From Takakia lepidozioides (lineage: Eukaryota; Plantae; Bryophyta): a stretch of DNA of 64,000 nucleotides. Shown here in pieces: positions 21,063 to 64,000 of the stretch. The notes beneath the pieces are model-generated. The model was given only the letters and a program-made list of their open reading frames with translations, was not told the origin of the DNA and did not search any database. Numbering within the stretch: the first letter of the stretch is position 1; each line of letters starts with the position of its first letter. The translations under genes and the position numbers were made by a program. The stretch spans positions 47,244,001-47,308,000 of the forward strand of contig CM060734.1 in the NCBI GenBank assembly GCA_030704615.1, given 5' to 3'.

Positions 21063-21788
21063 CCCTATCCTGCTGATTTGTTGTTGTGCTGGAACAGTAG
21101 CAAACGTAGAAAGACATACGCATTTTACATCTGTTGCTATCTTCAGTGCATATGTAGTGTCACAAAATCCAGGAACATGTTTGCTGTTTAAAAAGGGGCA
21201 GCAGCCTTTAGGGCTTAATGAAACTCCAACCCGACCCACAAATTATTGCACTTGTCCATGACCTTTTCCACCTCAACTATGAGTACGTGAAAGGACCCGC
21301 AAGGCTGCATGCAACTGCCAACCACCCCATCAACCCACTCTCGGGTCCTACCACACATCGTAGAGGTGCATGCATTCATACAGCATTTGATTGGTTTCGA
21401 GCTTGTTGTGAAGCCAAAGATTGCTAGATTATCAGATTGGTTCGGTGGTTATCCTAAAAGCAAACCTTCAAACATCGTCGAAGAATCGCTTCGATGTAAA
21501 GTCTGCGATCCACTTTTTCATGTGATGGCAGCTTTTCTGAAAATGTGAGGAAGCTGCTGAGGCTTTTGGGGGGAGGTTCTGATTTGCATCATGAAAATCT
21601 CTTTTGAACAGGAATGAATGAGTGCATAGAGCGCGAGTATTAGATGCATGTGCAGGCCTGCGACACAGTACTTGTCATTGTCCGAGCGACTGGCGTCAGC
21701 AGTGTGTACGTAACGATAAAAGTGACCACCCACAAAGGGCCAGACCGGTGATTGCACTGCAATAAAAGATCCACCATCATTCTCCTTG

Positions 21789-21795
21789 TATAAAA
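21789..21795 (+). promoter_or_regulatory. TATA box of the nsLTP gene
   Basis: TATAAAA starting 91 bp upstream of the ATG at 21880. Confidence 0.65.
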
Positions 21796-21879
21796 CAGCA
21801 CACCACCTACACTACGATCACAGCAGTTTCCTCCTTCCCAACTTTTGGCATTGCTGTGTGTGTACGCCGGAGATTGAAA

Positions 21880-22318
21880 ATGAAGGCTTCTGTGGTGCTT
21901 TTGGTCGTCCTCGCCGTGGGGGCCATGGCTTATAGTGCTGAGGCTGCCTGTGTGGGCAGCGTGACTGACCTGCTCCCCTGTGTGGCGGCCGCCAAGGATG
22001 CAACTGTAGCACCGGGCGGAGATTGCTGCGGGAAAATCTCGTACCTGTCTCTGGGTGGAACAGAGGAGGGAGTCGGTTGTGTGTGCAGTTATATGCACAG
22101 TCCGGAGGCTGTTGTCAGCGGCGTCATTCCTGATATTGCGATTGGCATTCCAAAGAGATGTAATTTACCGGTTCCCGTGGGCGCCGAATGCGAAGGTATA
22201 TAAGCTTCTTCTCTCTTTGCTCCGGTTTCTGAGAATGCTTGTCCCATTTGCTCCCCAAAACCGCTTGTGGCCCTAAAACCTGTTGCTAATGCTTGCAGGT
22301 GTAATCGTTCCTCGCTAG
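21880..22318 (+). CDS. Non-specific lipid transfer protein, type D-like, 111 aa; exons 21880-22195 and 22299-22318
   Basis: Signal peptide MKASVVLLVVLAVGAMAYSAEA and 8-Cys motif (C,C,CC,CxC,C,C). GT-AG intron 4 nt after the last Cys codon with a GCTAAT branch site. Spliced end ECEGVIVPR*. No GPI tail. Confidence 0.93.
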
Positions 22319-28100: not shown

Positions 28101-30810
28101 AGTCGACGCAGTAAATCTGTGAGAGCGAGGCCCCACCTGATGCACAAAGCTAAGGTCCACTGTGCCAACCAAACGTTCATGCTCTGCTTAAGCTCCTTCA
28201 GCGCCCATATGAATCCCTTTCGAAGGACGTCGGTGGACTGCTCGAACAACAGCATACAAGAAAGATTCTCCTTCCTCCCAATCCTGTCCCTTCATAAGCA
28301 TAACATCTCCAACCTCAGGATAAGGTGGACAACACCCTGGTTGACCCACCTGGAGCAAATGGTTCCTGGGACCAATATCCTCCAACTCATAGGCAACCAC
28401 AAACTGGCTTGGCGACTGGTAGATAGGTAGTGCCATGAATTGGTACATTAGTTGTTGAACGGGCCTTACAGATATTTCCCTCGGTCAAGAACTCAAAATT
28501 TGCATGCCAGTAAGGTCATGTGTCAAGGGCATTGCCGATTCCGGGGTTGCCATGTGTTGCTCGAAGAACTTAGCTTTGAAGAAGACTTTCATAACCCCTT
28601 CAAATTCATGTATGAAAAATCCCAAAACATTCGCTTTCCAAGCCCATGGGTGCTCTTCGTTTAAAGAGTCTAGCCTCACCACAACCAAGTCTCCCACTCT
28701 ATACTCTCTGCCACCAAGCAACAAGAACCGCAAGACCAAGATCTCTTCATTGAAACTTTGCAAGTTCAGATTTGTCAATATACCTTGGTCTCTCCAATAC
28801 TTCTTAAGATACAAATTGATGTCTTGGCCCATTTTTTGAACATTAGGACGTTTCAAACCCACCAATGTACCTTTTTCTTCTATCATTGCACGACATTCAC
28901 AAGAACCCACAATAGGCAAAAGCTTTGACAACTGCCTAGCCATGTCTTGCGAGTGTGTTATGATAGCACAGCTGCCATGCCACTCCTCACACTCCAAGGG
29001 ATTTCTGATTGGAGGCCGGTAAAAGTCTGTTGGTGGCCGAAGGTACACATGGAGCTCCTTCAATGCCCGTTTGGGTGGCAAAAACCCATCATTGTCCGCT
29101 TGGATACACGAAAAGATGTGTGTGAAGCAATGACGCTCAAAGTACTGGATGTACGAAACCTCATTTGATTTCTGGTTGGTTGGGATGGCCATGTAGGTTG
29201 AAACTTGCCACTCAAACGGGTAACACCAAAAATTGTCATGGCATCCGTGCCTGAGTACGTCATCTAAGAGCTCCCCGCTTCCTGAATAGCATAATAAACA
29301 AAATCCAAGGATAACATTCACACTTGACCATGTCCATGCTTGTGCTCATGAGAGCTTTGCAGGATGTCCCTCTATTACTGGCACACAATTCCACCCAAAT
29401 TATGTTTGTGTTTTTTATTGACCCTAGTGTTTCAAATGCATTACTAGGTTGTCTTGCTTTCCAGATATGCTATGCTTGTACAGTCATGCTAAACAGCTTT
29501 CCAACTTTTTCCCTAATCTTCAATGAGCTGAGGTCTATTGTTACTCCCTATACCCACTCAAATTGGCCACCAACCTTTCATTCTATCTTGTGAGCATACC
29601 ATCTCAGGGAGGGGACTGAGTGGTACAAGATGGAGTACCCCGATATACCACCTCTCCTCCTTTCCGCCACTCTCTCCTTCCCCATGGGCAATTCTCGCCA
29701 TTCTGTCATAGCAGTGAAAAGGCTTTCACTAGTTCGGACAGGAAGCGGATGTCGTGCTTCCTTTCGAGTATTCTCATATTTCAAGGTGTTTCTAGAGCTT
29801 GATCCTCTTGGTTCCAACTCCAAGTGAATATCGTGCCATCTACAGCCTGAATAGCCTCCCCCTTTCAGGCCCCCCACTTTACACTGGGCAGGATGGTCTC
29901 CTGTATAAAGCATCAAAATAGCACGCAGAGTGATGGGTTCCTCAGGAGACTTCAAAGGTAAGTACTTGCTGATTAAGTACTCTGGGTACGCATATGTGAA
30001 AGTCATGCCATCCACAAACGATGCTTCTAGTTCCCGAATAAGGGGTTCCAAGAATGCAGAGAGGACGTTTGTATCTGTCTGCTTTACTACTTTGTCAGAA
30101 CTGGTTGGAATAAACAACACAGGGAGGGGATCCAATGGAGATGTTTTGCCACCATTAAGAATCACAATCTCTAAAGTTCAACAATCACGTTGTCTTGTTT
30201 GCCCACTCATCCCAATGGGCCATCAATGCAAAGTTCCTCGGATCCCCCTGTGATGTCCATCATGGTCAAAATGCCAATTAGCAATTGGAATAACAAACAA
30301 ACCTTGTAATTTAAATCGTTTGTGGAAATTAGAGCCTGACATGCACTTTGACAATAGTAAATATATGCAAGTAAACCATCCAGGAATGTTCCTGCAATAC
30401 TCTTCCTTGTAAGACTTGAATTTGCAACAAAGTTATATGCACTGATGGGAATAAACCAAAAGAAGCAATAAAAAGAATTTGAATGAGCACCTTGTGATAT
30501 AGTTTGGGACTTTCAATGAGAGTGGCACACTCAGGGCAAGGAAAAGAATAGAGCCCACGGTGGTGATCCCAATTTTCACTCAATTCTGCACATTTTACAG
30601 ATGAAGGAAAGGCACGGAAGCTTCGTCTACATCCAGAATTTGGGCAAACAATGGGGGAGGTTTACTATTTCATGAGCGCATGAGCCCATGAGCCCATGAG
30701 CTCATGAGCGGACATCCGCGGAATTGGAATTTTCCTGCCTTTATTGACGGTGTTATGTCCTCTTACCTCGGTAATAGGGTCTGTTTCTCCTGGTCCAGGA
30801 TGCGGAATGA

Positions 30811-31095
30811 GGTATTTCGGCGCCGTTATTCCCAAGAGCAGTGTGCTAAAATGGTGTTTTGAAGACATCCACCGGGGTATTTCGGCACCGAAATTACCTC
30901 TTAAAATGTGATATAGTGCGGTATTTAATGGCGCAGAACGGGCTATTTGGGCGCCGAAATACCCAAGTGGAATGTGCTGAAGTGCCTTGTGCTGAAGGCT
31001 TCCATCGCGATATTTTGGTACAGAAATTCATCCGCGGAATTTTTGAGGCCCATATAACGAAGGCGCGCATTGGGCTATTTCGGCGCCAAATTTCC
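30811..31095. repeat. Left subterminal array of GGCGCC-core motifs with unique spacers
   Basis: Cores at 30819, 30884, 30950, 31017 (degenerate) and 31082; spacing 65-67 bp. Confidence 0.8.
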
Positions 31096-31348
31096 CAATA
31101 GGAATGTTAGAAACGGCAGGGTCTTCATGGCTTCAAGTTCTCGGCTCGATGGTGTGCATAAATTACTTGTAGGGTTCTTCACTGAAGTTTGCGTCTCTTC
31201 TGCTTTTATTATACATTTTGGTTGGCGGAAGAACAACCAAAATGTAGGGAATCGGACAAGCAGTCTGAACACAATGATTTTTCAAATCGTTAATATTTTC
31301 ATTAAGTGTTTCAGAACTGTACAACAAAAGGATCCAAATGAGACTTTG

Positions 31349-32971
31349 CTATGGTGAGGATCCGCTATCACTGTCCGATGCATCCCCGGCCTCATGCAAA
31401 GATGGCTGCCTTCCACCTGCCTCCGAGCCTGCACTGTCGCTACCGCTGTTACTTTGAGAAGCCCTCCCCTCAAAAATACCATCCTCACCAGCCGGAACTG
31501 TCCACCTGGGTGCGGAAGTGTCCTCAACATTCCCCTCGCTCTCGGACGCGGATTCTATTACGAACTTCCCTACTCTGCCTTTCACAATTCTATGTTTGGC
31601 CTCACGCCTCATTATAATTCTCTGCTCATTCCCGTATGTCAATTGCTCTAACCGAGTAGGCCTATCCTCCCTCTGGCAGCCGTGTCTGCATAGGCTGGTA
31701 GAAAAAAAGGCTTCTGGGGACTCGCGAGAAACGATTTTCTGGCAAAGAATGGCCGATGCGATTCTGTCTCCTCCTCTGCAACAGGGTCCGATTCGGGCAA
31801 GTCTCCCAGCTTCTCCTCGTCGGACGACTCTGCAAGGCTGAGTGTACGCACAAACATAGAATGAAGTACATTAGAGAATTCAAACAGGGAATCATCGGCA
31901 GGTTGCATGGTCCCTACAACCGAAACCAATACACTTACTATGGTGCAACTCACTCGAAGACAGGCATTGGGGGAAGCGGCTTCGGGCGCCCCTGCATCGA
32001 ACGAATTTCCTGGACTTCCTCCTCTTCATCTTCCTCCTCCCCTTCCACGTCATCTTCTGCGTTTTTGGGATCCTCAGTCGGAGGCAAACGCTGAAGGCCC
32101 GCCAAATTGTAATCGTACAAGGCCGTATCTCCCTCAAATGAGAACACAAATCGGTTCGACATCCTTCCCGCCCACATACAGGCACCTGCAAATTCATACG
32201 ACACAACCACAACCAAACTCAAGAATGAGTCGCTTCCTCGCACAAGCAAACATACACAAACGGAAAATGGTGTCAATTTTGGTGCCGCATTCAATTAACG
32301 TTCTCACCTGTATTTGCAGTGATGTCGAGGACCCTGCCTTCAACATCCGTACATGTTTCCATGAGCGTCTGGGATGAATGCAGGACTCTTGGTCCTGCCA
32401 TACCTCCATGGCTTGCCCGACAAATCACAAAGAATGTCCTTCTCTCCCACATGGTTGAACAGGACGTTATACTCCAGTGGATCAACTGTGGAATCAACAA
32501 GTCTTCCTGTTTCACGTAATTTGAATTTCTAATGTTTCTTCACGAAGCAAAATGCCTGAAAGATAAGAGTCTGCAGAGAAGGAAATGTCCTGGAGGTTTT
32601 GCTTCTCTGCAAGCTCCAGCAGGTTTTGATCGTCGCCAAGTCGTACCACGTTGTCGTCCTCTCCTTCTGTCAGCTCAATGGGCCGCCCTTCTGCAGATCC
32701 AACTCCCACATCTCCAGCGGCCTCCACCGCATTCGTAACCCAATATCTCCGCTTCCAGTCTCCCTAGGGGTTTTACTGGCGAAGCCATGGGCTCCTTCTG
32801 CTTCCTCGACTTCCGAACTCTAGGTGGGCTTTTCTGAGGCGATATCTGAGGTGTTGAATGAGGACTCGCCTGCCTCGATGCACTTCCACCTTGCGAGCGC
32901 AGCACCCGGGCAGGAGTATCCAAAGTTGACTGTGTTGCTTCGCCCCCCTGCGATCCCTCCCCAGCTCCCAT
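31349..32971 (-). pseudogene. Beta-class N6A/N4C DNA methyltransferase-like gene, copy 1 (motif IV exon deleted)
   Basis: Exons 32570-32308, 32185-31954 and 31837-31349 with GT-AG introns, plus a low-complexity N-terminal part from the ATG at 32971. Spliced protein reads KPWRYGRTKSPAFIQTLMETCTDVEGRVLDITANTG|ACMWAGRMSNRFVFSFEGDTALY, matching motifs X-I-II of N6_N4_Mtase. One stop and several frameshifts. Confidence 0.8.
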
Positions 32972-33637
32972 GTCAAACAAACAGGAAAACATGAGACACT
33001 GCACGCAAAAAAAAAGGTGTAAAAGGAATATTGCGTATGGAGTGCTTCATATCCGCAAAGCACGAATCTCTCACTGGTGGGCGATCCGAGTCTCCGGATA
33101 ACGAGGTCTGCATTTCATGCATGAGACGGAGCTTAAGTCGTGTCGTCGGCGGCTTCCCAAAATCTCGCGTCCTCCTTCTCTTTGCCGGAGTTGCCTGACC
33201 TTCCACAAACTCTATGCTACCACTATGCCGCATAAGGAGAGGAAACGCAGGAGAATGTCACTGCAGAAGGGCAAGGAGCGAGAGAGCGAAGCGGTGGAAC
33301 ATGCAACCACTATGCACGAGCAGATGTGTAAGCAGCCACGTCTCCCGAAGCGTTGCCACCGTCCACCACTTTCTGCCGTATGAGTGATGAAGAGATTGTG
33401 ACCCCTGACACGTTCGCACGGATGAAGTCGACTGGAACACGACGCGTGCCAGTTCCAGCCACCAGTACAAGACGGTTTATCCGAATTGCGGCACTGAAAT
33501 ACCTTCCGTTCACCGGATGCTGTTCCCGGAGCAGCCGACATTGAATGAAATATCTGCACATCATGAAACCCAACCGCCATGAAAATCCCCTGCCTATGAC
33601 ATTCAACAGTCAGGTCGGTACGTTTCATCAGCGGACG

Positions 33638-34996
33638 GATGAATTTCGGCGCCAAAATTCATCCTATTGAAGTGCTTTCGTACACAAACTTACAAATTTC
33701 GGCGCCGCAATTCATCGCTTCCCAAGTCCTCATTCGTCATGAGCAAACCTGTCAGTGGGATATCGGAGCCGGAATTAATTCCGGGACAGTGGAAACGGCT
33801 GCACTTGGGCACATTTCATCCATATTTCGGCGCCGAAATTCATTACGAATATCTCCGTCCGCGCGTAGACGAGGTGAAATCATCCATATTTCGGCGCCGA
33901 AATTCATCCAGAGCGAAGACTAAATCGGCACCATGCTATGCTTTGCCGCCATCATTGCCCCTGACGGATGCTGTCCATGCCTGTTGGACTTGCCATTTCT
34001 GGACATTTAACTATAATTTCGGCGCCGAAATTATACTTTATGTGCGGCAACGTCCCGTGCGAAAAAGACCACTTAATGGATACTGTCGGTTTCAAAGGAA
34101 AAAAACGGCTAAAATGCAATTAATTTTGACAGAAGGGGTTCAATATGCCGATTTCTCCATTAAATGCAGAATATTCCTGTTATCTTCGTCGGAACGGGGT
34201 ATTTCCAACGATTTACCGAAAATTATATCATCTAGAAGCAAATAATAAGTGTCGGGTTTGGACGAATTTCGGCGCCAAAATTCATCCGTCGCATAGAAAA
34301 TGTAATATTAGAGTTACTCATTGCGGACAGTAAGGATGAATTTCGGCGCCGAAATTCATCCATTTCAAAGAAAAAAAAATATTGGAGGGAGGGCATTGGA
34401 TGAATTTCGGCGCCGAAATCCGGCGCTCAAACCCTGAAAAGAATTTGGAGGGATGGAGTCGGTTGAATTTCGGCGCCGAAATTCATTGCTCGCGAAGAAA
34501 AAAAAAAAATTCGGGAGGACTTCGGATGAATTTCGGCGCCGAAATTCATTGCTCCCGAAGAAAAAAAAAAAATCGGGAGGACTTCGGATGAATTTCGGCG
34601 CCGAAATTCATTGCTCCCGAAGAAAAAAAAAAAATCCGGAAGGACTTCGGATGAATTTCGGCGCCGAAATTCATTGCTCCCGAAGAAAAAAAAAATTTCG
34701 GGAGGACTTCGGATGAATTTCGGCGCCGAAATTCATTGCTCGCGAAGAAAAAAAAAATTTCGGGAGGACTTCGGATGAATTTCGGCGCCGAAATTCATTG
34801 CTCGCGAAGAAAAAAAAAATTCGGGAGGACTTCGGATGAATGTCGGCGCCGAAATTCATTGCTCGCGAAGAAAAAAAAAATTCGGAAGGACTTCGGATGA
34901 ATTTCGGCGCCGAAATTCATTGCTCGCGAAGAAAAAGGAAAATTAGAAGGGAGTACTTGGATGAGATTCGGCGCCGAAGTTCATCTGTCGCAAAGG

Positions 34997-35030
<34 letters not shown>

Positions 35031-35490
35031 TCAGATGAATTTGGCACTGAAATCCATCCGCAGGGCAGCAGAATTAGGGTCGGAAAAGGAGATGAAGAAT
35101 GAATTTCGGGGCCGAAATACATCCATTCTGCCGATTCAGGATTACTGTCATTCGGATGTCAGCACCGATATCCGGACACGTGGTGAATCACGACTGTAAT
35201 CAGGAACACATTCATCCGTATTTTGGCATCCAAATTCAACCCTCATGTGCAGAAACAATTTGATGAAGAAGATGTTCATCCGAATTTCGGCACCGAAATC
35301 CATCCGTTGGGTGCTTGGTTAGTTTCATGAGGTGAACAAATTACTATTTCTGTCGCCGGAATTCATCCCCTGGCTTCCAAAGTTGTTACATGACAGAGAT
35401 GTTCATCCAGATTTCGGTGCCGAAATTCATGGGAAGGCCTGATTTATTGTAGCCCAAGTGGTTGTACATTACAATTCAGGCACCAAATAT
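33638..35490. repeat. Central array of the 24-bp palindrome ATGAATTTCGGCGCCGAAATTCAT at ~63-bp period
   Basis: About 26 cores. A homogeneous block of 8 near-identical units (cores 34472-34906) is flanked by units with unique spacers but the same period. Confidence 0.97.
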
Positions 35491-35639
35491 CCGATGTGAA
35501 CTTGCTGTTGTCGTCCGTTTTTGTAACGTACGTTACATACCTTCATCTTTACGTGCACCGATCACCCATCCTGTTGGATGCGGAATCCTCCAGAAAATCA
35601 TTTGTGTTATTAGGTAGGACACACTCTTCTCACTGCAGG

Positions 35640-36223
35640 ACTTCGCTGCGGAGCGTACCGAGAGGTCCCGTCTTCAACATGGACTCCCGTGTTTGGGTAA
35701 ACGTGTACTTCCATCCTGATTCTCTGAAAGCTAAAATACGTTCCACGAAATCCAATTCCCAGTCGTCATCCTCCTCCCACGAGAAGCTCTTCGCCCCGCA
35801 TACCGGTGGGTGACCCCGCAGCTTGGCCCACCCATCGGTGGGGGAAACTGAAAAGACGTCGGCCACCAACAAAGGCGAACGACACCAGGATGGCCAACGC
35901 TCTTGCAATGCCCTGCATAGTGCAAGGTTGCAGGGATGTTCCTCACCCCAGGATGGGGCGCATATTTCAGTTGTCAACAGCCGGGTCTGCTGCGCGCAGT
36001 GTCGTGTATACAATCACGGTTCACAGTACCCAGCTTGCAACTGTGAGGACTTCCTTGTTATGGAATCGAAGAATGCAGCATACGTCCCTGCAAACACCTT
36101 TATTACATTTTTCTGAAGCGCATGAGTTGCATATCCGCAGTGGACGTCTTCATCCATGCTCCAACACTGAGTTTCAACGAGCTGCACAAGGCCCTACGGC
36201 AGGACACTGGTCGGACTGCTTGA
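35640..36223 (+). pseudogene. SWIM zinc-finger gene (ZSWIM2/MEKK1-like context), frameshifted
   Basis: Across two frameshifts: RIFQLSTAGSAARSVVYTITV/SQYPACNCEDFLVMESKNAAYVP/CKHLYYIFLKRMSCISAVDVFIHAPTLSFNELHKAL, i.e. CxC-xn-CxH. 5' limit uncertain. Confidence 0.8.
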
Positions 36224-36906
36224 CATTCCACATTCGGGAAGGAGAAAGTGGCAATTATATTACATTCATCTTCTTGCACCCTATTTTTTTGTGAGGAATT
36301 ATACACTTGGTGGTGCCGCATCGCCATGGCTACATGTGAATTTCGGTGCCGCAATACATGAGAATGTGGTTTTTGGCCATGAATGGCATGCGCATGTTTT
36401 TTTTATTTTGGTTGTCTACAAATGGATCCGAGTAAAGCATACATTGTGTGGAGATTAACGGGCATTGAGGCCTATTTCAGCGCCGTTTATGGTCTATGTA
36501 CTGCATAGTGCTTCCTTGTTACTGCTCTTCATTCAATTTGTAGTGATTTCGCAGCCCATCCTGGCGTTTTCGTCCACCTTTATGAGAAGACTCCAATTTG
36601 CTACAAATACATTGTTACTGTTCTGCAAATGTGATGCCTTTACAAGATTGCTAGTTCTGTGTCCCAGTGGGAAGGGTCCTACTGCACATTCCAGCATTTG
36701 CATACTGCACCTTGTGCAAACAGCAATCCATACGACAAAGGACACGTCCCAGCATACTGGCAGTGAATTGCAAAAAACCTTAACAGAAGATTATCCAAGC
36801 ATGTATATTCCCCATATGGCACAGGGAAGCTGCTTGATTTCTGAATGAAAATGTATGTGCCATGAGTGTCGGCGAGTCGAAACATGTCTACTCTAGCATG
36901 CAAGAC

Positions 36907-37457
36907 CTATGGTCCCCTCGCCCAAGAAGAAGGAACTCTAACTGGCCTCTCAAGGACCTCCTGAGTGACCGGGTGCCTATATTTGAACAAAATGTCAGTG
37001 GTTTCTGTCGCCCGGTTGAAACTAACGAGGATGTCGTGTTTATCGATAGCGCCCCCTTGGTAGAAGGACATTTTCACATGGGCCCTGTGTTCCCCTCCTC
37101 CTCATCCTCATAACTGAAGAGAATGTCCCCACTTTCCGAGCCAGTCCGTCCACGCGTAAAGTTTTCACCTATGCACTCATCATACGTCCACTCGCAACAA
37201 TTCCAGCGATACAGCAACGCTGTGCGTGATCTGTTCGGCTCCCACTCATGCGGAAAGTCCAGGTCCATGATGCGTAGGAACCACCTGCTCCCCAGCCGGG
37301 GTCCAGGAGAATCGTGCAATCCTGGAAAAAACTCCATTGCTCTCAGCTGGACAAGTCGAGGATCGTCCCTGTAAACATCCAGGAAAACAATGATGTCGTG
37401 TGCTTTCGGGAAAATGACTCCCGTCTGGCGTCGATAGATGTGATTCGGGCACGACAT
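36907..37457 (-). pseudogene. Orphan ORF3 of transposon copy 1 (~183 codons, one frameshift)
   Basis: ATG at 37457. After a frameshift at ~37095 it continues EHRAHVKMSFYQGGAIDKHDILVSFNRATETTDILFKYRHP...GP*. An internal repeat (FTRGRTGSESGDILFSY / FNRATETTDILFKY) supports a coding origin. Confidence 0.5.
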
Positions 37458-37574
37458 GGCCTCACGACATAGCACAAACTCAAAGCAGGGAGGAGATGGG
37501 CACAACAGAGAAGAGTGAAGAGCAAAATGAGAGCAAGGCCTCCCTTACCGTAAGGCGGGTATTTGCTCTCCGGA

Positions 37575-38032
37575 GCCCAATTTTGGCGCCGTTATTGGAT
37601 GGAGTGCGGAAGCTTCAGCCGAGAATTTTGTTTCCGCAGGTCAATTTCGGCGCCGTTATTGGTTGCAATCCCTAGCCTTCAGCCGGGTATTTGGTTTCTG
37701 GACCCAATTTCGGCGCCGTTATCGGCTGCACTCCGGTGGCTTCAACCGAGTATTTGGTTTTCGGGGTCCATTTCGGCGCCGTTATCGCCTGCACTCCGGG
37801 TATTTGGTTGGTGGAGCCCAATTACTTTCACCGTTGTTGGCTTCACTCCCGAGCCTTCAGCCGGCTATTTCTTTTCCTGTGCCCAATTACGGCGCCGTTA
37901 TACCCAACCATCATGCACTTTTGCAACAGTACTATCCACGGTTATAGGTCGCCATTGCGTTTTCGGAGTCTGCAAACCCGGATCCTAATTCCGCTTGCGT
38001 CTCTGCCTCTGGGATAATTTCGGTGCCGTTAT
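37575..38032. repeat. Right subterminal array of AATTTCGGCGCCGTTAT motifs
   Basis: Cores at 37585, 37649, 37712, 37775, ~37827 (degenerate), 37891 and 38022. Confidence 0.88.
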
Positions 38033-41000
38033 TGCCCAGAATTCAGTTTTTCTATGACCTGGCCTAGCGGTCCATGAGCCTGGGCTCCAAGTCATGAGCG
38101 TACACTGGTACTCATGAGCGGAGTGCTTCCAGCATGAGCGCGGAAATCTTCGATTTTTGATTATTTTATAGTTTTGGGCCTGAAAAAAATCTGCCGAAAT
38201 TCGAAGTGTGTTACTTTGCGGCTCATGGGTGAGCCATGCCCGCTCATGAGCTCATGGAATAGCAACCCCCAACAATGGGGGCCTCCCATTCACAGTCTGG
38301 GTCCCAGAAAGCTTGATAATCCCGTAGCTTTGCACCATCCCAAAACTCTTGAATGCTCTCTGGCGTTTCATCACCAAGTTTACCTTTCCATTTATCCTTG
38401 GTCCTCCATAACGCCAAAAAGTGGTGGCAAAGCGTCCGACTTTTACAAAAAGATTCCAACAAGACACCAAATGGCAGATATTCAAACGCCAAGACGTCCT
38501 TCCTCATTTTCCCACATTTTGCACAAGTCTGACACCACCCACCACAATCCCTCCAGTTCTTTGCTATCGTCTTGGGTTGGCACATGCACTCTAACTTCAA
38601 GTCAAGATTATCTTCTATATGGGGTTCCATCAAATATGGAGCATGGGCTGCTTTTTTGGTCCCTGTACACAATCGCCACTTCTGAGCTTCTACCATGCCA
38701 AGACCCTTGTAAGTGGCCATAACCTGTTTCCATGAGGTGGGGTCCAATCTGACCCTGCAATCGTTAACAAGCGCCCCAAGTGCAAAGCTCGATAGTCCAA
38801 AACTCCTGCACTTAGCAATTGAGGTTGTTCGCCCAAGGATCCAAACAAAGTCTTCATGACCTCACCCTGAGCATGGACCGGCATGTGGCAATCATCCATA
38901 AGCTTTTGTAGCCCCATGATTCGTGCCATGAGAGCAATGTTCAAGTCTTGTGGTTGGAAAATGGGTTCCTCCCTGCCAATAATTGAAGAGCTTGTTGACA
39001 TCATACCTACTTCGACATGTGTTGCCTCTTCATCCACTGTGTGAGGGCTCAAAGAGCTTGCAGTCGCATTACTTCCTATCTCCACATCCACCATTGGATC
39101 AGAACTAGGTCTTACAGGAGGAGGGATGGACATCAATTGATTCCGCAGTATATCGTAACCACGGTGTGTGTTCACGGTTTGTTGGGACTACATAGGCATG
39201 CCATTGCATAAATGACAAAAGCATGGTATCCGCCGAGTCTCTTGAACAACGTCCGCAACTCTTCTGGATGAGGAAGGCTCATGTGGTGCAGGAAATGGCC
39301 TTAAGACGGGTCTTCTCACACTAGGATGGATTTTCCCTTCCACGGATTTCTTCTCATGGTTGTACCAAAGTCCTTCTCTGCAACCAGGAATAACCTGGAG
39401 AAATGTGCTGACACTTGTATGAACAAGTACACCGAAGCATTCATTGGTCTTCCATCACATCTGAAGCACTTCATATATAGCAGTTAGTTGAAGCACTTCA
39501 TAGTACAATTGGGCTGCACATCACTTTTTGGGATGAAGTCAGATTGGCAGCTAAACAGGAGACAAAGTTAGTCACAGGCTGACCACAGCCGTTGATGTGA
39601 TGTACTGGAAAACACCCTCACATATAACCCCAGAAGACTTCACTGGTCACATTCAAAGCTCTTTGGCATAAACTCAAGTCTGCTAAAATCTGGATCAAGA
39701 TCCAGCAACAAGACCAGAACTATGTGAGAGTGCAGAAGCAGAGGAGGGTTTACCATACCAATTAGTGCTACAAGCAGAGCTTGCGTGAATCACACGTATT
39801 GTCAGCTGCTCCTGACCAACCCAAGAATCGTTTGCAGATTCTGTGGAGGGGTTAAGATTGCATCACTCAGCAGCTTTCATGGAAACAGCGTTGGCCTCAT
39901 GGGTCTGGGTCACCAGAAATCCCTGGGGCGTGTAGGCATTATGGAGATACCGGAGTGCGTTGAGCTTGTGAGGATTGAAGCGACAAGCTTTCTCTAGCTT
40001 TGACACTGCATCTACATATGGCAGCTCCAGAAGGTCCTCACCCCATCTTGCCAAATTCTGTCCTCCCAGCCATGCCCTTAAAACGTAACCGGTTCAAAGA
40101 TCTCAGGCAACCCTCAGCAGCTTCATTTCAACAACTCTAACCATACTGAACTCGACTCTTACATGACCAAACGTGACAGTAAAGTAAGCAATTGAAGACA
40201 CAATCCAAACTAGCTTCAATCACATCCTCGACACACTCTATAATGTCATACTGGAGATAGCCTCACATTATTTTTCCAACCTGTTGTCCAACCATGGTGA
40301 AGAATCAGGGATGGATTTCTGCCAGGGCCATTCTATGACTCTTGAATACAGTAGGCAATTGGAAGGTGGCAGTGCTCTCATGTTTTTCCAGTTCTTGCAT
40401 GTAGGCCAAGCAACAGATTGATGTCCAAGGTTTCATTGGGGAACTAGGGGTTGAAAATCGTGGGTTTTGTTTGTTATATTTTCTTTCCGGGCCCTGTTTT
40501 TGTTCACCAAATCAGACAGGTTGAAGAATCAAACTTGAGAGGCTCTGTTGTCTTGGTGGGTTGGCATATGAAATGAGAAGTAACTTTGGCTGAGATCACA
40601 AAGTAATACCTGCATTCATCGTCCTGTCAAACAAAAGTGCTATCATAGCAAGCATCTTTTGGCCAACTTGAAGAAGAAAACGTCTCTCCAACTAGTGTCC
40701 ATTTATAGATTAATAATTGACATACATATATATGATACATTCACATTTTTTACAAGCGAACTTACCACCAATTGCCTTCAAGCACCATGGAAGCCTCAGA
40801 AAAAATTGATCTGAATTGTTGGGTAGAGAAGAGATGGAAAATTTCGTACCTTGGTGTAGCAAACTTGAGGCCCAATGCATGCAAAGGAATAGACAGAACC
40901 CCAAGTTGGGCCACAGTCTCAACCGGCTCCCCCACAGCCGTTTCAGCTTTCTCCACAGCTTTCTCCAAGGACAACCATGAATCAAGCACTCCTTGCCATT

Positions 41001-42588: not shown

Positions 42589-43258
42589 GGGGGTACATTT
42601 GAATTTAGGTGGGAAAATTTGAATCTGAATTTAAATTTGAATTTAAAAAACTAGTTGACCATTGACTCGGCGTTGACCATGCTAGACCAGTAAGCTGACT
42701 CATAAACTAAGTTAACAGGGGCTTCAAACTAAGATAACAAGGGCTTCATGATGATTAGGGCATTACCAGGGGTAGCCTCAATGCTGGCTTCATGATCAAG
42801 AGATTGGCATTGTTTGTCAAGCCTGAAATGTTGCAGGCGCCGCAAGCACAAGGTTTGTATTTCGAAACTCCAAACAACAAAAACTTTTGGATAATTACAA
42901 ACTGTCAAGTTGTTGTAAGGACATCTGGGTGCCAGAAAACATCCGTAAGACTGAGTAATATCCTCCTAAGTGTCCATTTCCAAGGGTATGTCTATTTACC
43001 TTCAATGCACGAGGATTTGCACCTGTGATGGTCTTAGGCTTCTCCCCCATATGGTTGGTCACCTGAACATGTTGTTGGGTCGATTGCCGTTCAACTTCCT
43101 TCTGGAAATTCCCACCAGTGCTTGTTCCCAACAAACCTTGAGATCCTTCCCATATGCAAGCAAGCAAATCTGGTCAGATCTCAACCATATATACATGTTG
43201 GCCAGCGCCATTGGTACTTTACGATACTGGAAGCTAGACCAATAAGCTGACTCAGAAA

Positions 43259-44060
43259 CTAAGTTAACAGGGGCTTCAAGATGATTAGGGCATTACCAAG
43301 GGTAGCCTCAATGTTGGCTTCATGATCAAGAGACTGGCATTGTTTGTCAAGCCTGAAACGCTTGGCCAGGGCCCCTACTGATTCAGTTTTTTTGTTCTCC
43401 GAGTGTTTATACTCCTTGAATTTCTCATAGAGATCTTCAGTTTTCCAGCGCATGTGAATTGTTGTGCCCTCATGCTCAAACAACAAGGCAACGAGGGTCA
43501 TTTCGCGTTCCTTGATGAACTTTTTGATTTCTTTCTGATGGGTGTCATTATGTCGCATGTTCATTGTGAAAAGAGTCTTGACCAGGGGGTCTTCCCTGTT
43601 ACTAAATCAATCTCTGAAATGCCTCATGTTCATGTTGTAGATCCGCCACTGTCGAGGGTAAAATTTCCTTAAAAACGCTCGTCCACAGAGGACATTTGCA
43701 TCCTTAGGGGCATTTGGGGGTCATTTTTCAAATACCCTCTCGTAGGTGGGCGTAGGAACCTCTACTTCATAATTCACAGCCAACTGCTTACCTCCTCTGT
43801 GCCCAAGTGTAGGCTCCTGTAGATTCAAGAAGGGCTCTTCTCCATGATAGCTTGCATCAACCGCTTCCCCTTCTTGCGCTTCTTGCGCATGAGCTTCTTT
43901 GTGCCCGTTTCTCTTGGCTACACATGAGCCACAAAACCTGTCTCCCTTGAACTGGAAATGCCTACCGCAGTTGGTGCAGAATGCAGGGGATAGTTCTTCT
44001 TTAATCTGACTTTGACCATCATCATCGATGTCGTCGTCTTTCTCCTCCAGGCCACCCTCT
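43259..44060 (-). pseudogene. Degenerate gene with a zinc-ribbon motif, probably a TE accessory gene
   Basis: Acidic stretch then FCTNCGRHFQFKGDRFCGSCVAKR (~43980-43910); downstream ORF 43259-43564. Confidence 0.5.
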
Positions 44061-45210
44061 TTGCAAAATCACAAACGAAACAAGTCACAACACCCCACTT
44101 TATACCTATTAGACAATATTTCAGGCTCTAAATGTATGGCGAAGTGTTTGAGTTCATCCATATCCACCTATCCTTCATGTTCTTTAAATGGACTGGGCCA
44201 GTAGAGCCATGCAGGCAACTAGAAACATTTTGACTTTGCCTCCTAGGGACAGTGAACCAGTAAGCTTTTCAAGGGCCCGGGTCATGGCGGTTGATATAAT
44301 TTTCTTCGAAGTTTTACATCTGTATTTTCCATGTCACAGAAAACTTCTGCAAAAACAAGAGAACCTAATGATCCACTGCAGAGATATCACAGTTGTATAG
44401 CCCATGACTACGATCCTTAGTGGCTCAGATACATGTGTCCACTTCACATAGGTGCCGGAAATATAAATTACATAACGGTGCAGGCAATTCTTGCTTCACA
44501 ATGCATGAGGCAATGGTACAAGTTGCATCTCAACACACAACAAGAGTTTGAACCATTGGCACCTACCTTGACAGCATCACCATGTTCGAGACATTTACCA
44601 CAGTAGCGCTAGCTGCAACATTGGCCACTGGATCAGGAGCTTTGCTTGTTTGCTGCAACAACAAAGCAAAAGAATGTTACAGTTAAGTAATCACCTACAT
44701 AAACATACATAGCCAAGAAGGCCTCTTACAACAAAGGTTGTACAACTTTTGCCCCAACACCCGGTTAGTCAGTGCGCTTCCCCAAGAATAGAACCAATTG
44801 GACGTTTCTCAACCAATGTACACAAGGGAGCTACTGCAGATGACTTGCCTGGCTCAGCTGAGGGCTCCCTTTCAGAGTAGCTTTCTCCTCTGTTGAAACC
44901 TAGAATTCGATGATAGAAAGTTGAGAAAAGACAGAATTACAAAAACCCATACATTCTAGCAAATTCTAATTCTAGCAAACGACATAGTGAGGGAAAAGAG
45001 CAGAGTAATGTAAACCATTTACAGAATTAGAGTAAATGTCTTTGGGCAGTCTCTAGCTGCCGTTTTGCATCCGCCTTAAATTCCCATCTTTTTGTATATA
45101 TATATATCTTATTCAATCCTGCACCTCTCCCGTACCTGCACCATTGCCAACACATTTCACCTCCAATCTGATAATTTGTTCCTTCAAGTCCTACATTAAG
45201 TAACATGCTT

Positions 45211-45532
45211 CACTACTACGTTTAGGGGGGGTTAGCGACGCCAGGACCCCGGGCGCATTAGACGCGCCGACCCCTCTGCGACTGCAGCGTCGCACAGGCG
45301 CCCGGCTCGGGACTTGCGACGTCGGGGCGTCGTAACGCCGGCACTCGGACGACGTTGTGGCATCTTGCGATGCCATGTCGTCGCCGGAAACGGGCCTGAC
45401 CCCATTCCCCTGCCAACGCATTGGGGGGGTTGCGACGACCTGACATCGCAACAATTTGCTGCGACGCCAGGGAATCGCAATGAGACGTTGCAACGCCGCA
45501 GCCCAGCGACGGCGGGGAATCGCAATGCCCCG

Positions 45533-45575
<43 letters not shown>

Positions 45576-45669
45576 CGATTCCCCGCCGTCGCAAATGCGT
45601 CACTGGGGCTGCGGCGCTGCGATTCCCCGGCGTCCTGGGGGCGTCGCGGAAAATTGATTCTGGGAGTAG
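45211..45669. mobile_element. CpG-rich CACTA-like mini-element, second copy
   Basis: Starts CACTACTACGTTTAGGGGGGGTTAGCGACGCCAGGACCCCGGG. The right end carries the inverted GCGACGCC..CAGGAC.CCGGG block and ends GGAGTAG. Confidence 0.55.
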
Positions 45670-48600
45670 ATTGTAGAGCATAATGGGCTTGGCATCTTCA
45701 GACTATAGCCATTTCTTGAAGAACTCTGGGAACAAGTCTCGGTGCAAGTTTCAGTTGTGCGAGCTCCTATAGAGTACGCATAATCTGCAACACAATGATA
45801 GGATTGAGATAGTGGTAGTCACTAGGAGCTAACTCTTGATATGTATATATATACTTGGATTGTTTTTGTGATACATAGATATATTGTAGATTTGTTGGTT
45901 AGTGTGCAGTGTCTTAGAAATATTATAATGTGGAGGTCCCAGGTTCAAATATGCATTGCCGAATATATGTAGAACAATGCATGAACTGCCATTGGAAAAA
46001 CCGGAGTCAATCCAGTATCGTAAAGTATCAATGGCGCTGGCCAACATGTATATATATCTATGTATATATGGTTGAGATCTGACCAGATTTGCTTGCTTTC
46101 ATGTGGAAAGGATCTCAAGGTTTGTTGGGAACAAGCACTGGTGGGAATTTCCAGAAGGAAGTTGAACGGCAATCGACCCAACAACATGTTCAGGTGACCA
46201 ACCATATGGGGGAGAAGCCTAAGACCATCACAGGTGCAAATCCTCGTGCATTGAAGGTAAATAGACATACCCTTGGAAATGGACACTTAGGAGGATATTA
46301 CTCAGTCTTACGGATGTTTTCTAGCACCCAGATGTCCTTACAACAACCTGACAGTTTGTAATTATCCAAAAGTTTTTGTTGTTTGGAGTTTCGAAATACA
46401 AACCTTGTGCTTGCGGCGCCTGCAGCATTTCAGGCTTGACAAACAATGCCAATCTCTTGATCATGAAGCCAGCATTGAGGCTACCCCTGGTAATGCCCTA
46501 ATCATCATGAAGCCCCTGTTAACTTAGTTTCTGAGTCAGCTTACTGGTCTAGCTTCCAGTATCGTAAAGTACCAATGGCGCTGGCCAACATGTATATATA
46601 TCTATGTATATATGGTTGAGATCTGACCAGATTTGCTTGCTTTCATGTGGGAAGGATCTCAAGGTTTGTTGGGAACAAGCACTAGTGGGAAAAATAGACA
46701 TACCCTTGGAAATGGATACTTAGGAGGATATTATCTTACGGATGTTTTCTGGCACCCAGATGTCCTTACCACATCTGAAAGCCTCATTGGTATGGTGTTT
46801 GAAGCTGAAAACTGAACCCTAGTTTAGTTTGGTTTAGAGTAGTTTAGTTCTCAATGTGCTTTAGTTTATGTCAGATTAAAACAACAATACAGTCTCATTT
46901 GTCACACACGTATATATGGAAGTCTTTAGAGGAAGACTTAGCGTTGTGCAATTTTTTATTAAATTATGGATTTCGTTGGTTTGTCTCGCGCAAGGCCATC
47001 TGCCTCACCTGGAAATCCATATGCCTCACCTGGAAATCCATATGTTGGTCAGTGTCTTTGCCCAAGACCTTTTTGATCTATGATTCTATGGAACTACAGT
47101 ATACTCTCCTTGCTCACGGATAGCGGGAAATTTGTAGAGAAGCCTTACTATTTTGGACCTATGTGAACAAGTAACTGATGGTTTGTCTGTTGCAGGGCCA
47201 TCTGCTGCACCTGAAAATCCGTACATTGGTTAGTATTTTGGCTCACGACATTTCCAGCCTATGGCTCTAGTCTATTCTAGTGGGTTCAAGTAGTATGATG
47301 GTTTTTGGTATAATGAAGTCATTACTAAACCCGCTGGGAAGCAGTTGGCTCGTCCAAAGAAGGCGATGACAAGCTTGCCCAAGGCAGTTGATAAAGTTGT
47401 TCAAACGAAGAGGGTGTATGCCTCTAAGGTACAGGTACACAAATTCTAAATTCTTCATTCTAAAAAAACCATTGCAAAGCATGTCATGGGGTTACAATTT
47501 CTACACGAGGTGCTTCAAGGGGTATCAACATTCGCTCCACAACTACCTACCTTCTCAAAGGCAAAGGTGAAAGGGATGTCCATGAAGCTTCGAAAGCTGG
47601 AAGAGTTGGACATAGTCGTGGCGTGGGCGTTGGGGAACAGAGTAAGACTTATCAACGTCAATCTGGATGCGGACGGATAGCTCAAACTTGCTGCATCAAA
47701 TATTGAGGACATTTGAAGAGGTACCCCACTTTGTTTCCTTCATTTCCCCCGCATTGTTTATGCCACCCTGTTTAGTCCAGAAAAGTACAATTTTTTGCAC
47801 ATGCCTGCTATACCACATGGGAGTTGGTAGACCCATATACAATAGGACCTACTATCTATATTGATGCCGAATCTCCTCTAGCAGAAAGGGTTCAGAAACT
47901 ACCTTGCCAAAAGAACTGGCAACTGTCGTTGCAACAAGGCCCATCTCCGTGTAATCACCCCCTGGATACCTCATTCCCACACAAATACTTTGTAAGGCAC
48001 TTGTCACATAGGTTTAACTGGAACAAAGTACCCAGACAACTACCAGTACCAACATGAATTTTGGGTGTGGTTGTCAGAATTGCTCTCATGATCACTTAGA
48101 TAATCAATAACCTTGCAGTCTTGCATGTGATGCAACTTACAATGAAGTCTGAGGTCGGACCTCTAGGTGTAGCAGGAGTGCTTATGATGATGTCAAACTC
48201 AAAATCTTGGTAGCATCTTCAAACCTATAAGTAGGGTAAAGGTTGCTTTAGTTACCATAGATATCCCCAACAAGCATATCAATTTGGGTGGAATCTCCCT
48301 GTATTGCCAATCCGATTGCCTGCTCAAAACTGCAGCAGGACAAAGAGAACCATTTAGTAATGTCGTCTTGATTGCATAAAAAGTTATCCACAGATCCAGA
48401 CAAGACTGGCCCTAAAACCTTCTACTCTAGGCATGCAACCATAGAAGGCGTAACACAAACACTTTCCTACCCACATCAAAGTGAGGATGCACAGCATAAA
48501 TCCTTGCCAATAGGCTCTTTGGTACAACTCACCTGGTGCAGCCTGTGAGAGCTGATGCCAACCCAAGGAAAGTGTTGCAGCACACAAGTTCTCTTAGTAG

Positions 48601-51490: not shown

Positions 51491-52385
51491 TGTTACATTT
51501 CAGGTTGTCGCGCGGCTTTTGCTCACCCATCCCTTCGCTATCCGAGGCGGAAACTCCAAGATAGAAGAGTTGGAAATCTCTAAGCACTCAGCCCGCTCAG
51601 AACAATCAGTCATGACCTACAGCTAGTGTATCATGGGGGTGTTTCCTATTTGTTTTCCTTCCCGCATTCATGTTAGCTAGTTACCTTATTGTTGGTAATT
51701 AAGTATCAGTTTGCTTCAGCAATCTATCGGATTCCATCAACTCATCCATTCATTCCACAGCTTCACTCAGATCTCTCTACACAGTGTGAGTATGAAGTAT
51801 GTATCAGATTAATATCTATCAAGTATCAGGGTAAAGCCATGGAGTCTCTAATCTGCTCTACATTACAACTCTACTGCTTGCATTCATCAAGCATCAACAG
51901 ATCGTCCTCCTCCTACTCTGTGCTCTCCCTCCTTTCGCTCAGAGATGCGCTCTCTGCCTCCTTTCCTCCCCAGTGATGTCCGAAGTCTCCCCCCAAGAAG
52001 TGATCCCCCCAGAATTGATTCTTTTCCAGTCCTCGCTCCTGGCTTTATCTTCCTACCCGTTGTTCTAACCGTTTCCCTCACTAACCGTCATCCGTGAACT
52101 AACATGTTCCATTCGCAGATGTTGTTCCCCACAGTCGTTCCCTGTCCTGCTATCCGTTCCCTATGGTCGTGACAGTTGTGTCAAGCTGTGACTGGCTGTG
52201 TGAAACTGTGACGGGCTGTGACCGACTGTGTCGGGCTGTGACTGGCTGTGCGACTGTGTTGGGCTGTGATTGGCTGTGTGGCTGTGACGGGCTGTGTTGA
52301 CTGTGACTGGCTGTGTTGGCTGTGTCGGGCTGTGTCGGTTGTGCGAAGCTGTGACGGGCTGTGATGGACTGTGTTGGGCTGTGTA
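51491..52385 (-). mobile_element. Putative 3' LTR of the Gypsy element (~895 bp), starting with a 10-bp-period GCTGTG array (52165-52383)
   Basis: Begins right after the PPT (TA instead of TG) and ends ...GTAACA at 51491. The partner LTR is not in the window, so the left end is inferred. Confidence 0.6.
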
Positions 52386-61241: not shown

Positions 61242-61243
61242 TC

Positions 61244-62120
61244 ACATGTGGCACGGGTAAGCCTTCACGTGCTCAGTTTGTCCCCTGGCCCGATTGCAAT
61301 TGCATGCCGCAAGCTATTAACCGCCCGCTTTGTTCCTCAGGTGCTTCAATGTGGGCAGGGACGTTGTCCGACAGGCATGTGTTCGCCTTCGAGCCAGATA
61401 CTGCCCTCCACAACTCGGAACTTGCAGCGGCTGAACGTCTGCCGAAAGAGGAAGAGGCATCCTCGGAGGATGAGGAAAAATCCAAGAAGGAGCAGGGGGA
61501 GGAAGTTGGGATCGAGGCCGAGGAGCCCCCGGTTTACGAGTGAGTGGTGGCATTATAAGTTGCCTCCAGATTTCGTGAGGCACCTCCCTCCGCTCTCTTA
61601 TTTCATTGAAAACCCTTTCTGGTTGTGCTGGTATTGACATTCTTGAAGTGGATTTGTTCTTACTGTAGGATGCCAAGTACTGCCGGAGGGACGTCTACAC
61701 CGGAGTTCATGGGCAGGAGGAACGTGCCTTTTTTTGCCAGGGGGGATTTCATGCCTAGTCCAGAAAGGGAGTACATCCTTCCTACTTATGCTGCCCGGCT
61801 TGCTTTGGTGTCCATTAGGAGGTGTTCCGAACGTAGTCGTGTACAACAGATTTTAGACGAGGCAAGCCTCAAAAAATGAAGATGAGGGAGGAGGCAGCAG
61901 CTATTAGAGCCCGTCGGGCTTGTAGATTTGTCTTGGATTCTACTGAGGAAAGTGGGGGAGAAGACGCAGAAGATTCCCAGGAGGTGAGGTGAACAGTCCC
62001 CCAAGGAGAGGACGGGATTTTTTAGAGGCATAGTGGAACTGATGCATCACAGAGCTCGGAGGATGAGGGGGATGAGGGGGATGAGGAAGAAGGTGGGGCA
62101 AGTTCCTTGGAGGGTGTAGG
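61244..62120 (+). pseudogene. MTase copy 2, 3' half in the inverted segment: exons 61244-61256, 61341-61539, 61669-~62120
   Basis: TCGTG|ASMWAGTLSDRHVFAFEPDTALHN...PVYE|MPST...PFFARGDFMPSP...R*TVPQGEDGIF; introns at the same positions and phases as copy 1. Confidence 0.85.
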
Positions 62121-62348
62121 AGAGTAGTGCCCATTCTGGCTATGACAGTTAGAACACACTTGTATAGACGTGGCTTGCCACAAAATTTGCAATAAAATGT
62201 TGCATTTCAAGTCCACTGGTGCCACATTCCAACTTCACATGACCCTATTTCCGTGCCTCCTAACCCTATTTCCGTGGACTCACAATGGTCTGCTCATGCT
62301 TTTTTTTTTTCCGCTCATGCTCATGCCGCTCATGAAATAGCAGCCCCC

Positions 62349-62400
62349 AGGGCGAGGACCCAATGGTGAAGAACTATGTTACTATTGTAATCAGCCAGGG
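62349..62400 (+). other. Inverted 52-bp piece of Gypsy gag, first half of the zinc knuckle
   Basis: Reads GRGPNGEELCYYCNQPG; joins GHVLYQ on the minus strand at 61240. Confidence 0.8.
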
Positions 62401-63862
62401 GATGTCCAGAATCCGCCCTTGGACATCCGAGCACGTCTCCATGAGGGTTTGGATGAAAGCAGGGCTCCGGGTCCGGCTGTACCGCCACGGTTTGCCTGTC
62501 TTTGTGTCCTTCGGCATACTGGAGTGGGGCACATAGTTGTAGAGGACATCGTAGGTTACAGGGTCCACAACGGCATCAACAAGACGACCGTCGTTGCGGA
62601 ATTTGAACGTAGACCCTCTCTTCACAAAGCAATATGCCTCAAACACCAATGTCTGCACATCCAACAAAGAAGGGATCAACTCCAGGGTCTACTTAACATA
62701 CACCACAATATGAAGTGAATGCAATAGATTGATAACTTACACTTTGGCCCTCTGTTCGCAACCCCTGTGTACTGATGCAGAACCATTTTCTGAGGAGGAC
62801 CGGGGTGACACTTTTCGGTGTCCACCTTGCCACCGCATTCTCTGTGGTCTTCCCTCTCGTGGCAAGGACAACCACACATCCACCGTCATCCAGAAGCATC
62901 CCCGCCAGCCCAAACCCGGCTTTCCAGTAGTCCTCAGTAAACCTGTTCCAGGTGGGCACACCATCCAGGCCCTCCAGCAGCTCCCCATCTGGAATGTCGA
63001 GGAGAATCATGTTGCAAGCTCTCTCCACCTCAACCCCCCTCCCCCCCCCCCCCCGAGTGCTCTTGCAATTCGTGCTCACAGCCGTGAAGAATTCCATCAT
63101 GGCTTCAAAACCAGGGGTGTCTTTAGGCTCTGTACCGCCAGCCCTCTTCTTGGCTTTCCCCTTCTGCTCCGCCAGAGACTTGCTGTGTGCCACCTTCTTC
63201 ACAGCGAGAGCGTCAAGGAAGCTCTCATTGACGCATTGGATGATGGTTGGAGGTTCTAGCTTTGGCCTATGCGTAAACGTCACCGCCGTGTAGGCTCGCC
63301 CTCAAATGCCAACTTCTTGGCAGAGCCAGTCCCACTCCGAACTGACTTGGGAACCCGGACGACCGGTGACTGGGTAGGAGCAATAGCAGTCGCAGGACCT
63401 TGAACAAAGTCGTCGTCCGAGTCACTCTCTTGGGTCCCCTCCTGCGCCTCCTCCGATGCCCCGATGGTTTTCTTCTTTTTGGGTGTTACTGCACTCACCT
63501 GTTTCCTTGTCCTTTTCCTTTGGCCTTTACTCTTCTCATGCAATTTCTCCTGAATTCCTGCCTGAGCAAGCTCTGCCGCTTTCCTGGAGTTCACAAGCGC
63601 TTTTGCCTCTTTTGCACCCAACGGAGGCAGCGGAGCCCGGTTTCGTCGGAATTCAGCATCCAGCTTCAATTGAAACTCGGATGGGTCGAGCGAGCTGGGC
63701 GGAAGGTCCACATACCAAGGGCAATCACGCGAATGTTCCAGATGCCACTCCTTCACAATATCGTCAGTGTACATGGAGTCAGCCCCAGGGTTCCTCCATG
63801 CCAGGAAGAATGGTGGCTCGAAAGACAGATGACCTTTCTCCAAAATGGAGAACTTGCAGTAC
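62401..63862 (-). pseudogene. MTase copy 2, 5' half: exons 63862-62741 (frameshift ~63283) and 62652-62401
   Basis: ACNMILLDIPDG (motif IV, 62987-62998) ... TWN ... YWKAGFGLAGMLLDDGGCVVV ... RKWF ... S|TLVFEAYCFVKRG ... KPWRYSRTRSPAFIQTLMETCSDVQGRILDI. GTAAGT...CAG intron at 62740-62653. Confidence 0.85.
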
Positions 63863-64000
63863 CTGCATTCATGAAAAACACAATGAGGTCCCTGAAATGC
63901 ATATTCGGCACCATTTTCCCAGGTTGGGGCGGATGTGAGTGGGCCTAGAAATGGAAAAATGGCGCCGAATTTCGGTTTTCGGTGACTGCCACCCTAGGGA

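Follow-up and report, generated by a model that had tools for sequence, protein, structure and literature searches.

The window, the 64,000-nucleotide stretch of Takakia lepidozioides DNA analysed here, contains PPR repeats, a Ty3/gypsy pol, Tnp2-like genes and a high-copy DNA transposon with two broken genes and three arrays of short sites (Table 1). The Ty3/gypsy element (52185-61254) has a 1,579-aa pol frame followed by frames of 375 and 392 aa without Pfam matches, with 10-bp repeats inside pol (56814-57146) and downstream of it (52185-52384). Just downstream of an uninterrupted Tnp2-like transposase is an array of 35-bp period (14880-15335; also 60- and 95-bp steps), possibly the subterminal repeats of the Tnp2-like element at 11.7-14.6 kb. 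Long inverted repeats at 42681-46776, separated by 2.9 kb (471 bp at 98%, including rearranged sub-blocks), are likely another young foldback-type element. The open frame at 21766-22200 resembles, by eye, a plant lipid-transfer protein (signal peptide, cysteine pattern), and nested 194-, 72- and 36-bp tandem repeats with internal inverted repeats lie at 4176-4927.

Table 1. Features of the transposon, its insertion site and the sister element
Feature	Position	Strand	Basis or remark
High-copy, internally deleted DNA transposon, 7,615 bp; holds all arrays	30656..38270	-	Contig depth, ends, empty site
Decayed Tnp2/EnSpm-like transposase gene (host element), split by the insertion	28488..39223	-	Flanking pieces match one contiguous paralogue
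Target-site duplication, left, 9 bp	30647..30655	.	Same 9-mer at 30647 and 38271
Left terminal inverted repeat, ~22 bp, 7-8-bp CATGAGC subrepeats	30656..30710	+	
Left subterminal array, 5 sites, steps 65, 66, 67, 65	30814..31092	.	
Gene B, broken amino-methyltransferase-like gene, deleted and frameshifted	31382..33046	-	5' extent guessed from open frame
Gene B predicted GT-AG intron	32307-32186	-	Splice sites read from sequence only; next exon from 32185
Single degenerate site	32276..32291	.	Inside predicted intron of gene B; weight-matrix match at 32283
Gene B predicted exon, motif X-I region; one stop, frameshift at 32371	32570-32308	-	Sequence
Central array, 27 sites, modal step 64 bp	33479..35495	.	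Between gene A and gene B, upstream of gene B
Homogenised block, 8 units, A-tract spacers, steps 61-64	34461..34958	.	Recent
Gene A, broken reading frames; second deletion point at 35738	35613..37544	-	
Single site in gene A region	36340..36355	.	Weight matrix and strict pattern
Right subterminal array, 7 sites, steps 64, 63, 63, 52, 64, 131; right-arm variant	37574..38038	.	Upstream of gene A
Right terminal inverted repeat and scattered CATGAGC subrepeats	38075..38270	-	
Target-site duplication, right, 9 bp	38271..38279	.	Same 9-mer as left copy
Sister element, same terminal repeat (62348); holds motif-IV exon (DIPD)	61337..64000	-	3' part inverted

The transposon interrupts an older element: the pieces flanking the insertion match the uninterrupted paralogue at 11.7-14.6 kb, and this host element matches Pfam Transposase_21 at E 0.009, below the Pfam cut-off. 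Five public sequencing runs from two studies contain at least half of the sequence words, the best of these possibly being the source sample. The element ends are confirmed by other copies, which depart from the window sequence exactly at 30656, by a contig that ends at 38270, and by the empty-site joint (30647>38272) in run X2. In that run, summed contig depth, which is not a copy number, is several hundred-fold higher inside the element (24,000-107,000) than outside (70-300). Because the element starts at 30656, the length of the target-site duplication is 9 bp; this length, a feature of the Mutator-like (MULE) family, points to a Mutator-like element. The terminal inverted repeats are short (~22 bp) and imperfect, long classical Mu terminal repeats were not found at the element, and no match to a MuDR-type DDE transposase was obtained in the window copy, which is deleted at 35738.

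Longer copies have extra sequence at both 32587 and 35738, and the window copy is a derivative. Loose ends of at least 255 nt occur at 32587 in run X5, and loose ends at 35738/9 occur in runs X1, X5, X7, and X10 (~836 nt in X10); a transposase may have been lost at the latter deletion. Several single-base indels also set the window copy apart from much of the family. The sister element carries one related site (63963), and its visible end lacks an array. On the minus strand, its methylase-like gene extends to ~62400, followed by the terminal repeat and then by the 3' exons in opposite orientation, an inversion that looks as if the element end had inserted into its own gene.

Gene A has no family match in Pfam, PHROGs or NCBIfam, and in the Atlas it retrieves only unnamed fungal clusters with low recognition. 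For gene B, the motif-IV exon is missing at the 32587 deletion, and the family was traced through the sister copy (54% identity, E 1e-22). An index-free search of 1.8 billion protein representatives with the upstream exon of the sister copy gave 12 matches, at least one of which (P0011) is a low-complexity false match; the cluster member P0014 covers both exons and has a direct match to the array-bearing element (tblastn E 1.7e-14). Among the ten proteins retrieved by a profile search, six are named Adiantum (fern). Word-indexed protein searches with the sister-copy exons among longer proteins found nothing, none of the 275 pattern matches in a protein-pattern scan of metagenome contigs was confirmed, and PDB sequence searches gave nothing significant. 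The Atlas match to N6_N4_Mtase (0.88-0.89) is a lead only, and no joint in the small runs corresponds to the intron predicted for gene B, a result with no bearing on expression.

A beta-class amino-methyltransferase fold is predicted for the gene B family from the modelled domain of the fern relative P0025 (27-row alignment, pLDDT 76, pTM 0.76). In Foldseek this domain matches M1.HpyAVI (E 3e-10) and CcrM (1e-9), and comparison with M.MboII, M.BceJIV, CcrM, M1.HpyAVI, M.RsrI, M.PvuII, and N4CMT gives Z 14.7-17.6 over ~195-213 residues, the best being 17.6 (M.MboII) and unrelated folds reaching at most 7. The array element's own split pieces match the family profile at only E 0.2 and 1.2, and the fold of whole P0018 (pLDDT 47) has no significant structural match. 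A motif-I-like loop is kept. An aromatic residue in motif IV (DLPF or DLPY) is present in four of the 25 relatives in which this motif is readable, of 30 examined and with many near-duplicates among them; the other 21 lack it, and the sister copy reads DIPD in place of the catalytic (D/S/N)PP(Y/F) of active beta-class N4C/N6A methyltransferases. Because motif IV usually lacks the aromatic residue, the cargo protein would more likely be a binder than an enzyme.

Two fern relatives, P0026 and P0024, have an N-terminal GNHR-like motif that, judged by eye, resembles that of ParB, in a region that is absent from the window copies. The putative ParB-like domain of the fern relatives found no match in Pfam, PHROGs, NCBIfam, or PDB sequence searches. 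The stretch just upstream of the 32587 deletion, considered by eye as a ParB helix, was dropped, as it has no match of any kind.

Between the two genes lies the central array, described in an earlier note as 26 cores of a 24-bp palindrome. The 24-mer is a perfect palindrome, with seven exact copies and 15 copies with up to three mismatches in 33639-35122 (0 of 100 shuffles give any), and all 26 core positions agree with an independent unit list (each coordinate marks where the central GGCGCC begins). Seeded on 15 sites, a symmetric weight matrix recovers 25 of these cores, that at 35479 being seen by eye only; the null expectation is 0.84 matches per 64 kb, at a threshold lower than that used. 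A 27th site lies at 33492, 158 bp upstream of the first listed core. Comparison across arrays reduces the common site from the proposed 24 bp to the 16-bp ATWWCGGCGCCGWWAT, which in the central array is extended rightward by TCATCC. Public contigs show that the core at 35110 is intact in the family majority. The exact 24-mer has no match in metagenome contigs, and two-site patterns have none in viral and none in prokaryotic contigs. The array unit folds into a strong hairpin (z -7). A protein-coding origin for the array was rejected, since steps of 61, 62, and 64 break any reading frame. The outer units of the central array (33811-35432) form subtypes, in one of which TTCATCC precedes the core in direct orientation and may be a second recognition word.

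Sites of this kind are confined to the element. All 33 window matches to a strict site pattern lie within 30656-38270 (12% of the window; shuffle mean 0.5), and the 56 kb of the window outside the element has none. The 33 matches comprise the three arrays (30.8-31.1, 33.5-35.5, and 37.6-38.0 kb) and a single site at 36347. Sites therefore occur at both element ends, between the genes, and, including the degenerate site, in the predicted intron of gene B, with none in the homology-defined exons of that gene. The right-arm variant of the right array is non-palindromic.

Near-identical spacers (z 7-12) bear out the earlier observation that the eight central units are freshly homogenised. Summed contig depth across this block is below that of neighbouring bins in all three deep runs, which hints that many family copies carry fewer units there. 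The outer spacers, described in the note as unrelated, are not entirely so: of all 253 pairs compared, some six that lie outside the block score z 3.0-3.9, and this faint kinship among a few outer spacers is consistent with an old tandem origin. Divergence of motif and spacer is uneven: across the 21 pairs formed by seven outer units with 64-bp steps, 70% of the 18-bp core is shared vs. 30% of the spacer. The motif thus outlasts the spacer, and the 64-bp step is kept in other copies, several of which have new spacers. These results support selection on motif and spacing, and the note's proposal of new sites made by tandem amplification.

From 33492, the steps of the central array are 158, 53, 64, 64, 64, 128, 250, 74, 64, 63, 63, 62, 63, 62, 62, 61, 61, 64, 73, 65, 53, 64, 64, 63, 64, and 63 bp. 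Of the period of 61-65 bp originally proposed, 64 stands as the mode outside the A-tract block, and the values of 61-63 inside the block follow A-tract length; public contigs show three additional A at 34809 in part of the family. In other family copies the step is exactly 64 bp in nine of ten computable joints and 33 bp in the remaining one, and six of the nine joints implying 64 bp insert 18-31 new letters. Ten of the 12 joints displayed with inserted letters have a site on both sides, a further 26 joints being outside this count; contig joints are biased to short distances, yet favour no single value. The fixed period of the array is thus well supported.

Rotational phase, also claimed for the array, is suggestive. 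The short exceptions (52, 53, 53, 73, and 74) all lie 9-12 bp from 64, near one helical turn; under simple indel and uniform nulls this gives, as a rough and post hoc estimate, p ~0.0005 when all five count as independent and ~0.01 when only three do. The 52 step of the right array is a 13-bp deletion, other copies having 13 more bases at 37795 (giving 65), one 73 step arises from A-run expansion, and the two 53 steps may share one origin. Other distances do not fit the claim: the left-array steps of 65-67 accord poorly with six turns, the 250 gap misses a whole number of 10.6-bp turns by half a turn, and one diverged contig has lost 6 bp at 35271, which would leave a step of 58 if the neighbouring site is kept.

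The element also differs from its surroundings in CpG content. CpG observed/expected is 0.98 for the element (0.80 with the sites and the recent block masked) and 0.79 and 0.75 for its two genes, compared with 0.36 for gypsy pol, 0.39-0.50 for Tnp2-like genes, and 0.42-0.52 for bulk DNA of the window; the sister copy is at 0.61. The contrast is that of one window, in which single 2-kb bins outside the element reach 0.74-0.80. This pattern suggests a long-term, partial escape of the element from CG methylation. Among core substitutions, 28 of 38 are of the CpG deamination type; thus, the sites would have been 5mC-methylated at times, and the protection would be incomplete.

We propose that the array is a one-face binding platform for an accessory anti-silencing protein encoded by the element, which helps it to resist host CG methylation, an account we consider somewhat likelier to be right than wrong. 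Because the window copy lacks the motif-IV exon, the full accessory protein would be supplied in trans by longer or intact copies. A dimer of this protein would read the symmetric 16-bp site, and six-turn spacing would set neighbouring dimers on one face of the DNA, allowing cooperation; indels of a whole turn would therefore be tolerated and others purged. Occupancy would keep both ends of the element and the region upstream of gene B under-methylated, and unequal exchange or slippage would add new units, such as the eight-unit block. A more specific version is possible but doubtful: a land-plant transposon family would have co-opted a bacterial-type amino-methylase as its anti-silencing factor. 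The protein, probably without catalytic activity and probably fused to ParB, would act cooperatively on a six-turn lattice of 16-bp palindromes, with selection keeping the lattice while the spacers are replaced.

Alternatively, the sites could be bound by the element's transposase (or a transposase-derived regulator), which would activate transcription and pair the ends, the methylase-like gene being unrelated cargo. Arrays near both ends would suit this function, a transposase may have been lost at 35738, and the transposases of AtMu1 and Spm TnpA are described as sequence-specific activators (bioRxiv 10.64898/2026.08.24.746577). However, 27 of the ~41 sites lie upstream of gene B, at a distance of at least 2.8 kb from both ends, and the CATGAGC subrepeats at the ends themselves are more natural transposase sites. 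We therefore regard this explanation as unlikely, though of some weight.

It is distinctly unlikely that the palindromes are the substrate of an active N4-cytosine or N6-adenine methylase encoded by the cargo gene, such that self-marking would block host 5mC. This function has been proposed for algal cargo (PMC12477816), and it accords with the complete beta-class fold predicted for the fern relative, with the retained motif-I-like loop, and with the DLPF or DLPY of four of the 25 relatives. The absence of the aromatic residue from the other 21 (again with many near-duplicates among the 25), the DIPD of the sister copy, and the loss of the exon from the window copy argue against catalysis, and a substrate alone would require no fixed period.

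The arrays might instead be an old minisatellite in neutral decay, its palindromes kept by hairpin-templated repair and its period merely inherited. The stable hairpin of the unit, the kinship of some outer spacers, and evident tandem turnover are in keeping with such a history. Inheritance nevertheless fails to explain exact 64-bp steps between spacers at 30% identity, or three arrays with different spacers, one common site, and similar periods together with single sites in an intron; nor would self-repair hold the non-palindromic right-arm variant. On this evidence neutral decay is quite improbable.

Recruitment of a host factor, or the positioning or exclusion of nucleosomes, is very unlikely. 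CG-rich sites and A-tracts upstream of a gene might serve either role, and three steps of 64 bp give 192 bp, which would be about one nucleosome repeat, with A-tracts disfavouring wrapping. Against this, the site has no match in the 56 kb outside the element, and most A-tracts lie in the recent block or next to it. A CRISPR-like array of palindromic repeats and acquired spacers has a similar geometry (~28-bp repeat and ~36-bp spacer) but is scarcely credible, given that the central spacers are tandem duplicates, the repeats decay at both ends, the sole spacer match elsewhere in the window is 12 bp long (E 0.08), no cas-like gene was found within the window, and the two-site pattern is absent from viral and prokaryotic contigs.

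The favoured reading, of a platform for an element-encoded accessory protein, has parallels among transposons with accessory genes. Like these, the element holds a gene for an amino-methyltransferase fold (broken, and assigned through a chain of homology) and an adjacent inverted-repeat array. Red-algal Plavaka elements are described as carrying methylase (PAG2) and ParB-like (PAG3) genes, with tandem inverted-repeat arrays adjoining the ParB cargo; self-binding is proposed but not tested by the authors, who also mention Mutator elements of Chondrus with such genes (bioRxiv 10.1101/2025.02.11.637652). The cassettes are alike in that a DNA transposon combines amino-methylase cargo with inverted-repeat arrays beside an accessory gene. 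The present element differs in its land-plant host, in its 9-bp target duplication, in that no SET or 2OG-oxygenase domain was seen, and in its 64-bp step, the main-text passages on Plavaka stating no spacing rule (bioRxiv 10.1101/2025.02.11.637652). In Ectocarpus, Sola1-1_Ec32 has an accessory ParB-methylase gene proposed to modify the element itself (PMC12477816). It too places a prokaryote-type N4C/N6A methylase domain on a eukaryotic DNA transposon, in another superfamily and host. Its ParB fusion is documented, while that of the present element is no more than suspected, and the main text of the paper never uses the word "palindrom" (PMC12477816).

Beta-class amino-methyltransferases (M.MboII, CcrM, and M.PvuII; N4CMT and MpDN4MT1) share fold and motif order with the model of the fern relative. 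N4CMT and MpDN4MT1 are described as active host genes with SPPY (PMC8885841, bioRxiv 10.1101/2021.02.12.428880), whereas the gene B family rides on transposons and mostly has D-L/I-P followed by a non-aromatic residue. In Arabidopsis VANDAL elements, VANC motifs accumulate by tandem repeat formation in non-coding DNA, including introns and upstream regions (PMC5735166, PMC10398659). The arrays described here likewise present an element-specific motif accumulated through tandem repeats in non-coding DNA, with units evolving together, and by analogy the element may work like VANDAL/VANC. It does not belong to that family: VANC motifs are non-palindromic words of 8-9 bp that are recognised by an unrelated protein, the terms "spacing" and "palindrom" are absent from the text of PMC5735166, and the VANC domains DUF1985 and DUF287 have no Pfam match in the scanned frames of this internally deleted element.

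Open-access main texts gave no account of phased palindrome arrays or of a fixed period in such plant elements. With its defined 16-bp site, its CpG footprint and a 64-bp rule kept even where spacers differ, the element makes self-recognition directly testable. If the proposal is correct, the protein and its site would form a portable pair for local protection from silencing in plants. Under the more specific version, plants would possess a second anti-silencing system, arisen separately from VANC, whose spacing rule can be measured and whose long-term trace is retained CpG. Array-carrying transposons with ParB and methylase genes are already published for algae; the strict spacing is the new part.
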